Below, piece after piece: positions 32,115 through 64,000 of a stretch of 64,000 bases of DNA. The stretch lies in the sequence record LR597658. The stretch is one strand, 5' to 3'. Origin of the DNA: Escherichia phage VpaE1_ev108. Both the position numbers and the translations under genes were made by a program. The notes beneath the pieces are model-generated. The model searched no databases, was not told where the DNA came from, and saw nothing but the letters and a program-made list of their open reading frames with translations. Numbering within the stretch: the stretch's first letter is position 1; each line of letters begins with the position of its first letter.

Positions 32115-32660
32115 TCAAAAGTGTCCTTTTACTTGTGGAACATAAATTTCAAAGGTTGCTTTACCATCCTCTGATGGTTTTGACTGTACCTTTGTAAATA
32201 CACGGTTATCATACAGCTTCTCAAAGAAGTTTTCAAAAGGTAAATACACAGTGGCCTCTTCAGTAACTTTATGGAAAACTGTATGGAAAACTACACCAGC
32301 ATATGGTAAAGCATTGACAAGGACACCTGCACCACCAATTACAAAGATATCTTCATCAATAGAGCTATCGAGATACTTCAAAAATGCTCCAAAGGATTCT
32401 TTGCTGGCCTTAGCATACATTACCTCATCTTTGCCAAAGTCTATGCCTAAGTATGGTACAGAGTTTGTTAAGATGAGGTTTGCACGTTCTGGTAAAGGTT
32501 TACTACCCAGAGTCTTGAAAGTCTCATTCCCCATTACTACTAAGTTGTTTTTAGTGAGTCTCTTAAACTCTTGCATATCCTGTTTATGTCGAGGCCACGG
32601 CATACCAGTTGGAGTACCAAACTCCCCATTTTCACCACTTGCAAAGATTAATTTAATCAT
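32115..32660 (-). CDS. dihydrofolate reductase
   Basis: 181 aa; N-terminal MIKLIFA...G motif; adjacent to thyA. Confidence 0.7.
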   Translation of the reverse strand: MIKLIFASGENGEFGTPTGMPWPRHKQDMQEFKRLTKNNLVVMGNETFKTLGSKPLPERANLILTNSVPYLGIDFGKDEVMYAKASKESFGAFLKYLDSSIDEDIFVIGGAGVLVNALPYAGVVFHTVFHKVTEEATVYLPFENFFEKLYDNRVFTKVQSKPSEDGKATFEIYVPQVKGHF

Positions 32661-32917
32661 TTTGTAAATCCTTTCTTAATGAACCAGTTGATAACATTCT
32701 TCACAGCTTTATTGCTATGGTAGATTAAGTGTGGTGTAGGTTGGTATGAACCATAAGCCCAGAAAGCAATGATTTCATTACATCCTGTACACCTTGTACT
32801 CTCTTCAGCAATATGACCGTTGACTATTTCACTTACCTCGCCTTGTAAGTCTGTACACCCACAATGTGGGCATCGGATAGGTGTTCCATCAGACTCATAG
32901 CAGTGTTCAATTTTCAT
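32657..32917 (-). CDS. small zinc-ribbon protein
   Basis: 86 aa; CPHCG ... CTGC pairs. Confidence 0.6.
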   Translation of the reverse strand: MKIEHCYESDGTPIRCPHCGCTDLQGEVSEIVNGHIAEESTRCTGCNEIIAFWAYGSYQPTPHLIYHSNKAVKNVINWFIKKGFTK

Positions 32918-61125: not shown

Positions 61126-61617
61126 ATGAATAAGGGTTATTTTGAAAGATACCTAATATATGAACCAGATACAGGTTTATTAATTTGGAGAGTAACCCTT
61201 TGCAGTACCGCTATTGCTGGTAATGTGGCTGGCACAAGGTCTAAGAAGGGTTATATCCAAGTCCAGATAAATAAGAAGAGGTACTATGCACATAATATCG
61301 CATGGATTATGTCTGGAGGTGAGATACCAAGTGGATATGAGATAGACCACATAGACCTTGATAAATCCAATAATAAGTTGGAGAATTTAAGACTTAGCAC
61401 AAAGTCACAAAATCAGAGGAATAGGGGTATATACAAGAATAATAAAACTGGTGTGAAGGGTGTAAGTTTTTGTAAACAAACAGGTCTTTACAAAGCAAGA
61501 GTCATGCTTTACCATAAAGAATACTTTTGTGGAAGATTTAAAACGGTAGAAGAAGCAAAAGAAGCTGTAATTAAAAAGCGAATAGAACTTCATGGTGAGT
61601 TTGCAAGACATAACTAA
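61126..61617 (+). CDS. HNH homing endonuclease inserted between the Prs-like and NAMPT-like genes
   Basis: 163 aa; HNIAWIMSGGEIPSGYEIDHIDLDKSNNKLENLRLSTKSQN; paralog of 38855..39370. Confidence 0.75.
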   Translation: MNKGYFERYLIYEPDTGLLIWRVTLCSTAIAGNVAGTRSKKGYIQVQINKKRYYAHNIAWIMSGGEIPSGYEIDHIDLDKSNNKLENLRLSTKSQNQRNRGIYKNNKTGVKGVSFCKQTGLYKARVMLYHKEYFCGRFKTVEEAKEAVIKKRIELHGEFARHN

Positions 61618-61631
61618 GAGAGAGATAAAAT

Positions 61632-63413
61632 ATGAGTAAGTCACTTTACGCAGTACCAGCAGGTCTTAATGCAGATGCTTACAAGGCATCACATATATAT
61701 CAGTATCCAGATGCTACGCAATATCTTATGTTGAACCTGACACCACGTAGTGCTAAATGGTTTAACAGCCCTTTAGCAATTGACGGTGTAGTAGCTTTTG
61801 GTATTCAACGTTTTGTTAAAGATTACTTGATAGACCACTGGAACGCCACTTTCTTTGAACGTGATAAAAAAGAAGCCGTTGACGAAATCTTAGAAGTCAT
61901 GAATGGCGTTCTAGGTAAAGATGCTATCGGTCGAGAGCATTGGGAAGCACTTCACGACTTAGGTTATCTACCAGTTGAAGTATACGCTGTAGAAGAAGGC
62001 ACAGTTGTCCCTATGCGTGTCCCAATGATTGTCTTCCAGAACACTGTTTCAGGTTTCCATTGGGTAGCAGGTTATCTGGAAGATGCTTTCTCTGCTGAGA
62101 TTTGGAAGGCTTGTACCATTGCAACTATTGCATTGCACTACAAACGTATCTGTAAGAAGTGGGCTGACCTTACTTGTGACAACGACTTGCATTTGCCTTA
62201 TCAGTGCCATGACTTTGCTATGCGTGGTATGTCCGGCTTTACTGATGACGCATTTAACGCTGTAGGCCACTTAACCAGCTTTAAAGGAACTGATAGCTTC
62301 CCTGCTGTGTATACGGCTAAACGAATCTATGGACAGTCCTACCCAATCTCTGATATTGGTAGCTCTGTACCAGCCACTGAGCACTCTGTAATGTGTGCAA
62401 ACATTGCTTGGGAAGGTGGTAATGAGTTGATTGAAGAAGAAAGACGCTTTAAAGGTGAGTTACAAACCTTCCGTCGTTTCTTAACAGAAACTTACCCAAC
62501 GGGTATTGCAAGTATTGTTTCAGATACTTATAACTTCTGGAGAACTGTGTCAGAAATCTTACCAGCACTCCGTAAAGAAATTATGGAACGTGACGGTAAG
62601 CTGGTAATTCGCCCTGACTCTGGAGACCCTGTACATATTGTCACAGGTTACAAAGCAATCCACTTAGAGTGTGCTAAAAAGGCTTATTACGAGCACCTAA
62701 GCAAGCTAGAGGCAAGTGATACAATGCTGAACTCTGTCCTGAACATGAAGCTTGAAAACATTAACTATGGTATTGCTGGATGGCTACTGTCAGAAGGCTA
62801 CGAAATGGTTGTTGACAGAGAAGACTTTGAAGTTGCTGATACGGTGATGTTGAAGAATGCTTATATGGTTGGTTCTGCAAACGTTGTAACACGTCCTGTA
62901 GCTGAGATTGATGGGGCTATTAAGACACTGTATAACATCTTTGGAGGAACTATCAACTCTAAAGGTTTTAAAGTACTGGATGAGCATATCGGGCTTATTT
63001 ATGGCGACTCTATCACGTTGGAACGTGCAAACGAAATACTGAAGCGTTTGTATGAAATGGGTTTTGCAAGCTCTAACGTAGTGTTTGGTGTAGGTTCTTA
63101 CACTTACCAGTACATGACTCGTGACACCTTTGCATTTGCTGTCAAAGCAACTCTTGCAAGCATTGGTGGTAAAGAGATTATGCTTGCAAAAGACCCTAAA
63201 ACAGATAGTGGTGTTAAGAAGTCTGCTTTTGGTGGTGTAGCACCTATGTGGGATGGTGAAAATCTGAAAGCTGTAGATGGCTATGGGTTCCAGAGCTTTG
63301 CAGATGCACTTGAACACCCAGCTTGTGCTTTGCGTCTAGTCTTTAGCGACTCTGAGCAGTTCGGTTACACAACTCTTGGTGATATTCGAAATAATATTGA
63401 CAAGCAGCTTTAA
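61632..63413 (+). CDS. nicotinamide phosphoribosyltransferase family protein (NadV/NAMPT-like; candidate nicotinamide ADP-ribose transferase)
   Basis: 593 aa; NAMPT/NAPRT-family size and composition; assignment from sequence recall, not a search. Confidence 0.65.
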   Translation: MSKSLYAVPAGLNADAYKASHIYQYPDATQYLMLNLTPRSAKWFNSPLAIDGVVAFGIQRFVKDYLIDHWNATFFERDKKEAVDEILEVMNGVLGKDAIGREHWEALHDLGYLPVEVYAVEEGTVVPMRVPMIVFQNTVSGFHWVAGYLEDAFSAEIWKACTIATIALHYKRICKKWADLTCDNDLHLPYQCHDFAMRGMSGFTDDAFNAVGHLTSFKGTDSFPAVYTAKRIYGQSYPISDIGSSVPATEHSVMCANIAWEGGNELIEEERRFKGELQTFRRFLTETYPTGIASIVSDTYNFWRTVSEILPALRKEIMERDGKLVIRPDSGDPVHIVTGYKAIHLECAKKAYYEHLSKLEASDTMLNSVLNMKLENINYGIAGWLLSEGYEMVVDREDFEVADTVMLKNAYMVGSANVVTRPVAEIDGAIKTLYNIFGGTINSKGFKVLDEHIGLIYGDSITLERANEILKRLYEMGFASSNVVFGVGSYTYQYMTRDTFAFAVKATLASIGGKEIMLAKDPKTDSGVKKSAFGGVAPMWDGENLKAVDGYGFQSFADALEHPACALRLVFSDSEQFGYTTLGDIRNNIDKQL

Positions 63414-63426
63414 AAGTATATGATAA

Positions 63427-63450
63427 GAGGCTCCTACGGGAGCCTTTTTA
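63427..63450 (+). terminator. rho-independent terminator
   Basis: gaggctcc-tacg-ggagcctt followed by ttttta. Confidence 0.7.
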
Positions 63451-63466
63451 ATTTCTGGAGAAAACT

Positions 63467-63802
63467 ATGAAAATCAAAGAGATGAACATTAACGTTGTCC
63501 TAGAAGAACGTTGGGAAAACATTAAGAAACCTGAAAATGGTCATAAATTCCTTAACAAAATTTTAGTAGCAGCTAAAGAAGAACTAACGGGTAAGGTTGC
63601 AGCAGCAATCACAATAAAGGTTTGTGTAAAGGGTCTTTCAGACAATCACCAATTTGCACTTGACGAGTTTAAAGAAAGCTTCTACAATCCAAACAAACAG
63701 ATGCTTGAAAGTAACTTTGCAGTATCTACAAGTATCGTCCATGACAGAAGCTTTATCCTTTACAAGAATATGAGAGGTGAGTCATGCAAGCATATTGGAT
63801 AG
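63467..63802 (+). CDS. hypothetical protein
   Basis: 111-aa ORF. Confidence 0.6.
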   Translation: MKIKEMNINVVLEERWENIKKPENGHKFLNKILVAAKEELTGKVAAAITIKVCVKGLSDNHQFALDEFKESFYNPNKQMLESNFAVSTSIVHDRSFILYKNMRGESCKHIG

Positions 63803-63960
63803 AAATTTTACTGTCACTTGGTAGTGTAGCAGTATTTGTCTACCTCCTTTGCAAGTACTTTGCAGAGCACAAAAAATGTGACTACTGTAATGGAGAGGGG
63901 TACATAAGGGCAGGATGTTGCCCTATGTGTGGTGGTTCTGGTAAAATGTTTAATAAGTAA
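63784..63960 (+). CDS. small membrane zinc-ribbon protein (58 aa), absent from ORF track
   Basis: ATG 63784 after RBS aggtga; MQAYWIEILLSLGSVAVFVYLL then CDYCNGEG ... CCPMCGG; overlaps upstream stop by 19 nt. Confidence 0.5.
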   Translation: MQAYWIEILLSLGSVAVFVYLLCKYFAEHKKCDYCNGEGYIRAGCCPMCGGSGKMFNK

Positions 63961-64000
63961 TTTAACAGTAAACTGAGAGGAAAGTATTATGCGCATGGTA

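Follow-up and report, generated by a model that had tools for sequence, protein, structure and literature searches.

The cysteine-rich domain of DnaJ/Hsp40 proteins (PF00684; PDB 1exk) is built from four CxxCxGxG motifs with two zincs, and it works within proteins that also carry a J domain, a G/F region and C-terminal substrate-binding domains. Stand-alone fingers of this type occur, for example, in the following two proteins. Anti-TRAP (RtpA) of Bacillus (PDB 2bx9, 3ld0) is a soluble protein of about 53 residues, without a membrane helix, which folds as one DnaJ-like four-cysteine zinc hairpin, assembles into oligomers (dodecameric particles in 3lcz) and works purely by protein binding, its target being TRAP. 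The plant thylakoid protein FIP combines one membrane anchor with a C4 finger of two CXXCXGXG repeats and has no J domain; its finger lies on the stromal side, and FIP acts by binding the membrane protease FtsH5 (PMC5915565). The phage counterpart, ORF 131 of Felix O1, was listed in the 2010 genome paper as 'CHP, membrane protein (1 TMD)' of 58 aa, with 39% identity to a protein of phage JSE (PMC3185647). Our search of the literature on phage proteins that combine a transmembrane (TM) helix with DnaJ-like fingers found no functional study, only genome-annotation mentions and an insert in the DNA polymerase of HMO-2011.

Here we analyse the end of a 64,000-nucleotide stretch of Escherichia phage VpaE1_ev108 (LR597658; the whole stretch is henceforth referred to as the window), where an earlier note, made from the sequence alone, had proposed a 58-aa membrane zinc-ribbon protein on the plus strand. 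An ORF of 58 codons is present exactly where the note had placed it, running from ATG at 63784 to TAA at 63958–63960, with the translation MQAYWIEILLSLGSVAVFVYLLCKYFAEHKKCDYCNGEGYIRAGCCPMCGGSGKMFNK. We consider it highly probable that this gene is the orthologue of Felix O1 gp131 and that it encodes a bitopic inner-membrane zinc-knuckle protein acting as a membrane-tethered binding module.

A known phage gene in a conserved gene order

The window is Felix O1-like phage DNA (Felixounavirus): its last 701 bases match Felixounavirus LF82P1 at 100% identity and share 95–97% identity with over 200 Escherichia, Salmonella and Shigella phages of the Felix O1 type, Felix O1 included. The gene itself is already known and annotated, as ORF131/gp131 in Felix O1 and in hundreds of relatives. 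The window protein was found at full length in 212 phage records at an identity of at least 90% (range 91–100%), differs from Felix O1 ORF131 at 2 residues (96.6% identity) and matches PHROG 3931 over its whole length (residues 1–58 on profile positions 1–59 of 59; E 1.5e-33). Within this felixounavirus family the position, the 19-nt overlap with the upstream ORF, the hydrophobic helix and the two CxxCxGxG motifs are the same as in the window. Beyond it, orthologues were found in Mooglevirus, Suspvirus and Pectobacterium phage Arno18, and a homologue in RB49/JSE (Krischvirus), located after nrdH rather than before rIIA as in the window phage.

Every annotated relative inspected has the gene on the plus strand, under labels that vary from record to record: 'hypothetical membrane protein' in the Felix O1 RefSeq entry (as ORF131), 'membrane protein' in CRP22 and others, COG0484 (DnaJ-class Zn finger) in the FSL SP-107 record, and 'heat shock protein; DnaJ-like, contains cysteine-rich domain' in Mushroom. 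The plus-strand gene order in the window is prs, an HNH homing endonuclease, nadV, the 111-codon ORF, the 58-codon ORF and the start of rIIA (Table 1), in agreement with the earlier remark that all neighbours lie on that strand. The arrangement nadV, (111-aa ORF), this gene and rIIA, all on one strand, recurred in all four Ounavirinae groups examined.

Table 1. Features at the end of the window, with coordinates in the window and the basis of each assignment.
Feature	Coordinates	Strand	Basis
Candidate sigma-70-like promoter, TTGACA-16-TATGAT, 11/12 matches	63397..63424	+	Consensus match
Terminator-like hairpin and T-run after nadV	63425..63448	+	Conserved; annotated terminator in Mordin
Upstream 111-aa ORF (Felix O1 ORF130, PHROG 4262)	63467..63802	+	59–65% identity across genera
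Shine-Dalgarno region GAGAGGTGAG	63772..63781	+	GAGG core 6 nt ahead of ATG
Protein-coding gene, 58 aa and stop	63784..63960	+	Orthologue of Felix O1 ORF131/gp131 (NP_945023); PHROG 3931
19-nt dual-coding overlap, end of 111-codon ORF and start of 58-codon ORF	63784..63802	+	ORF coordinates
Hydrophobic helix, predicted single membrane anchor, codons 5–23	63796..63852	+	Hydropathy; AlphaFold
Two CxxCxGxG motifs, 6 residues apart, codons 32–53	63877..63942	+	Invariant Cys/Gly; profile match
Minus-strand 60-aa ORF, read as non-coding antisense shadow of the gene and the rIIA start	63814..63996	-	pN/pS 3.0; stops
rIIA start, continuing past the window end	63989..64000	+	Position set by annotated rIIA in Mushroom, CRP22 and EcSzw_1

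The surroundings of the gene vary in content. The homing-endonuclease-like ORF between prs and nadV (HNH/AP2-type, 163 aa, 61126–61617 on the plus strand) is an insertion that is missing from the prs/nadV junction of Sf19 and EcSzw_1; Arno18 also has a homing endonuclease upstream of nadV. A variable insertion site separates the nadV terminator from the 111-codon ORF; FSL SP-107 has an extra small ORF of 114 aa there (L041 468–812) and Mordin one of 72 aa (L005 1969–2187). Three diverged examples from RB49-like T4-type phages each show the homologue in an 11-nt overlap with the 3' end of the gene before it, which is a glutaredoxin-like nrdH in the first (region L008 2236–2653), an ORF with a faint Glutaredoxin match in the second (region L038 3742–4177) and an unannotated ORF of 91 aa in the third (region L039 255–699); this arrangement may hint at a link to redox or nucleotide metabolism. 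T4 rIIA.1, which lies directly upstream of T4 rIIA, was considered as an equivalent of the gene and rejected, its translation having neither a hydrophobic helix nor cysteines.

Some copies depart from the common form. Three of them (P0011, P0015 and P0017, e.g., in Escherichia phage phiWec177) are frameshifted 63-aa versions, of which the first has lost the second CxxCxGxG motif and the other two have lost both, so that the gene may be dispensable or these few records may contain sequencing errors. Felix O1-type copies of about 91% identity were also found in a record named 'Staphylococcus phage SA1' (GenBank GU169904, 120084–120257) and in two 'Campylobacter' phage records, and such names of unrelated hosts suggest mixed or mislabelled assemblies. 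Within the window, a scan of all six frames for CxxC...CxxC paralogues yielded no second ORF combining a TM helix with CxxCxGxG; the sole other small CxxC match, an 86-aa ORF at 32657–32917 on the minus strand with a zinc-ribbon pattern (CPHC...CTGC), has no hydrophobic helix and is unrelated.

Coding strand and expression signals

The ORF track available to the earlier reader offered a different gene at this position, i.e., a minus-strand ORF of 60 aa. That ORF does exist as an open frame, and a 60-aa cut-off, which lists it while hiding the real gene of 58 aa, probably explains why the track showed the spurious antisense ORF only. We compared the two strands in 26 felixounavirus copies from GenBank and IMG/VR, 23 of them distinct. 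Among these 23 sequences, 29 of the 42 variable columns fell on codon position 3 of the plus frame (binomial P 2.4e-6). Counted as codon differences from the window copy, variation in the plus frame comprised 196 synonymous and 55 non-synonymous changes, with a Nei-Gojobori pN/pS of 0.088 that was unchanged when the 19-nt overlap was left out, versus 12 synonymous and 234 non-synonymous changes and a pN/pS of 3.0 in the frame of the minus-strand ORF. The plus frame is thus under strong purifying selection.

Comparison across genera gave the same picture. The plus frame was the sole frame without internal stops in Mooglevirus (Sf19, Mordin), Suspvirus (EcSzw_1), Arno18 and Krischvirus GEC-3S, and again in two metagenomic relatives. 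The earlier note had preferred the plus strand and had named frame conservation in relatives as the check, with conservation of the minus frame as the outcome that would speak against it; what we found is the opposite of that outcome, the plus frame being kept and open across genera. We attach next to no probability to the idea that the minus-strand ORF is a real gene, or that both strands code. In its favour, this ORF stays open in three other distinct close relatives besides the window and has a weak, sub-threshold Pfam match to DUF6358 (E 0.016). Against this stand its pattern of substitution, a stop at its codon 8 in most of the distinct felixounavirus sequences (17 of 21), the closure of all minus frames in the other genera, the position of its start within the coding start of rIIA and the plus-strand orientation of the neighbouring genes. 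These sequence comparisons identify the plus-strand ORF as a true coding gene, with the minus-strand ORF as its antisense shadow.

Given an in-frame TGA two codons upstream, the ATG at 63784 is the earliest possible start. The ribosome-binding site (RBS) reported by the earlier reader is present as GAGAGGTGAG, with its GAGG core 6 nt before the ATG; a GGAG/GAGG element at equal spacing is retained in five other phage groups, and the site is annotated as the RBS of the small gene in Mushroom and Mordin. The reported overlap with the upstream ORF was also recovered, at a length of 19 nt, as the 111-codon ORF stops with TAG at 63800–63802, and it recurs at this length in Felix O1, Sf19, Mordin and EcSzw_1. 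Both the tail of the upstream protein (CKxIG*) and the start of the small protein (MQxYWxE) are conserved across genera in this dual-coding segment, so constraint on the other frame may account for part of the conservation at the N-terminus of the small protein. Translation of the small gene would start from its own Shine-Dalgarno element within the end of the upstream ORF, to which it is probably translationally coupled. The 111-aa protein had no match in Pfam or NCBIfam, the sequence relatives found for it were close ones only, and its AlphaFold model was poor (pLDDT 59). Arno18 lacks this ORF; there the small gene, with its own RBS, comes directly after the hairpin.

A candidate host-type promoter for the 111-codon ORF, the 58-codon gene and rIIA was recognised by its near-consensus match (Table 1). 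It directly adjoins the nadV hairpin, which would therefore contain the start point of its transcript. Mooglevirus and Suspvirus retain this promoter and hairpin as well as the RBS of the small gene. Co-transcription of the small gene with the 111-codon ORF and rIIA/rIIB from this promoter seems probable to us. The Felix O1 genome paper does not include this promoter in its list (PMC3185647). In the RT-PCR analysis of Felix O1, transcripts of ORF130 and rIIA were maximal at 25 min and were assigned to the middle class (PMC3185647). An Rfam scan of positions 63300–64000 returned nothing near any gathering score.

Predicted membrane helix and zinc-knuckle motif

The single TM helix described in the earlier note corresponds to a hydrophobic stretch at residues 5–23 (mean Kyte-Doolittle 2.1), and hydropathy showed such a helix, about 19 residues long and close to the N-terminus, in all of 11 homologues. 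For the cysteines, the note had given the pattern CxxC...CCPMC. This pattern is present, although it is less specific than the two copies of CxxCxGxG that we found at C32–G39 and C46–G53, separated by a spacer of 6–7 residues across homologues, and it includes an extra cysteine (Cys45) that is not conserved. By contrast, C32, C35, G37, G39, C46, C49, G51 and G53 were invariant in 12 homologues from across the genera. Codons 32–53 are predicted from this motif to form one four-cysteine zinc site, and 'membrane zinc ribbon' was a fair description of a protein that is more exactly a DnaJ-type CxxCxGxG zinc knuckle.

Profile and structure comparisons both pointed to the DnaJ finger and to Anti-TRAP. 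The family profile aligned with both halves of the cysteine-rich domain of E. coli DnaJ (1exk; E 2.7e-7) and weakly with Anti-TRAP (E 0.045), and it matched some 2000 CxxCxGxG proteins in a library of 1.8 billion proteins, among them other small proteins of 55–110 residues with an N-terminal helix and a finger. Together with the full-length conservation in 212 records, the 1exk match puts the cysteine pattern beyond chance. The Pfam family DnaJ_CXXCXGXG (PF00684) was matched at profile positions 34–65 of 65 only and scored 18.3 bits, below its gathering cut-off of 32.7, as is expected for half a DnaJ zinc domain. Other finger families also fell short of their thresholds, namely DUF5351 (PF17302; 19.9 bits against 27) and the Anti-TRAP families PF15777 (11.7 against 32 bits) and NF058604 (14.4 against 65 bits); a DnaJ family match likewise lay under its curated threshold. 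No J domain was matched in Pfam or NCBIfam, the 58 residues being taken up by helix and finger. The AlphaFold model (pLDDT 72) consists of a helix at residues 3–28 followed by a small knuckle, and a Foldseek search of the PDB with it returned four matches, i.e., three Anti-TRAP chains and the DnaJ cysteine-rich domain, with E-values of 0.37 to 3.3 that are not significant because the domain is so small. The Anti-TRAP chains superposed with an rmsd of 0.6–1.4 Å over 23–26 residues (E 0.37–0.85), the best of them at 0.6–0.8 Å over 23–24 residues and 39–42% identity, which makes Anti-TRAP the best structural match.

The C-terminal hairpin of the phage protein, of about 25 residues, would have the fold of one zinc centre of the DnaJ domain, and of Anti-TRAP, and is predicted from its motifs to bind one zinc through its four cysteines. 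It shares with DnaJ the pair of CxxCxGxG motifs. In contrast to DnaJ, it has two such motifs and a single predicted zinc centre, lacks the J domain, the G/F region and the C-terminal substrate-binding domains, and is membrane-anchored. Given the missing J domain, the half finger and the score below cut-off, we regard the label 'heat shock protein' as an over-annotation. Anti-TRAP resembles the phage protein in motif spacing and differs in lacking the helix, and we know of no TRAP-like target in enterobacteria. The mature architecture of FIP is that of the phage protein, with the stromal side corresponding to the cytoplasmic side; FIP is, however, a eukaryotic protein with a transit peptide and is reported as restricted to land plants (PMC5915565), and the likeness is one of architecture only.

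Topology and possible roles

Taken as a whole, the protein would be a 58-residue bitopic inner-membrane protein with its N-terminal helix as the anchor. Since the N-terminus has no positive charge, the short N-terminal tail is most likely periplasmic and the zinc knuckle cytoplasmic. The juxtamembrane stretch, which is basic in the window phage and in Krischvirus and acidic in Mooglevirus and Suspvirus, varies in charge between genera and makes the positive-inside rule ambiguous here, so that this N-out/C-in topology is not secure. By analogy with Anti-TRAP and FIP, whose stand-alone DnaJ-type fingers bind proteins, we infer a protein-binding role for the membrane-tethered knuckle, in preference to an enzymatic or hole-forming one.

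Two rival readings have to be weighed against this one. We think it very unlikely that the protein is a holin, or another membrane protein of lysis timing that makes the inner membrane permeable to the endolysin. Its small size, single membrane helix and charged C-terminus are those expected of a holin, and it adjoins rIIA, historically tied to lysis phenotypes; the Felix O1 genome paper, on the basis of such protein features, counted gp131 among five holin candidates because no holin gene adjoins the lysin there (PMC3185647). The genome announcement of Mushroom, however, describes a separate T4-like class-III holin together with spanins, and the gp131 orthologue is annotated in that genome as a DnaJ-like cysteine-rich protein. 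The gene sits in a block of nucleotide-metabolism genes and rIIA behind a host-type promoter, without linkage to lysis genes, transcripts of the adjacent ORF130 and rIIA reach their maximum at 25 min and not late, and in the RB49-like T4-type phages its homologue lies near nrdH. T4-type phages generally have a T-type holin, and described holins are not known to have an invariant zinc-knuckle motif. The holin idea of 2010 for gp131 is thus unlikely.

It also seems improbable, if a little less so, that the cysteine-rich domain lies in the periplasm, or that it is a redox-active CxxC module engaged in thiol-disulfide exchange rather than a structural zinc site. The Krischvirus-type overlap with the 3' end of the glutaredoxin-like nrdH would fit such a role, as would the acidic juxtamembrane region in Mooglevirus and Suspvirus; with the charge-based topology ambiguous, a periplasmic, disulfide-bonded domain keeps a small probability. 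Oxidoreductase activity of DnaJ is cited in a passage of PMC8262869, and is credited to Tang and Wang (2001) in a passage of PMC5915565. On the other side, the zinc-binding fold typically has the glycines that are invariant here in CxxCxGxG, and the gene of the window phage adjoins rIIA and not a redoxin. The N-terminal flank contains no lysine or arginine in nearly all homologues, and a flank of this kind disfavours an N-in/C-out signal-anchor.

For the membrane-tethered binding module, we can name candidate partners only tentatively, and that the knuckle is an adaptor for one specific inner-membrane partner of the kinds below is a conjecture to which we give a small but real chance. In one version, the protein would anchor or regulate the RIIA/RIIB complex; protein and complex are probably expressed together in each of the four Ounavirinae groups examined. 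RIIA is annotated as an Hsp90/GHKL-type ATPase and is membrane-associated without an obvious anchor. In the other, suggested by the analogy with plant FIP, it would bind and modulate the host protease FtsH.

The main value of these results is as an annotation check; the gene itself entered the records with the deposition of the Felix O1 genome and its publication (2010). What the gene adds to the biology of these phages is a conserved, membrane-anchored mini zinc finger, probably co-expressed with rIIA, that is common to Felix O1-like and RB49-like phages and makes a reasonable, if non-urgent, target for work on rII biology or on small phage membrane proteins. If either version of the adaptor proposal were true, the protein would offer a first molecular entry point to a conserved phage function of the early or middle period.
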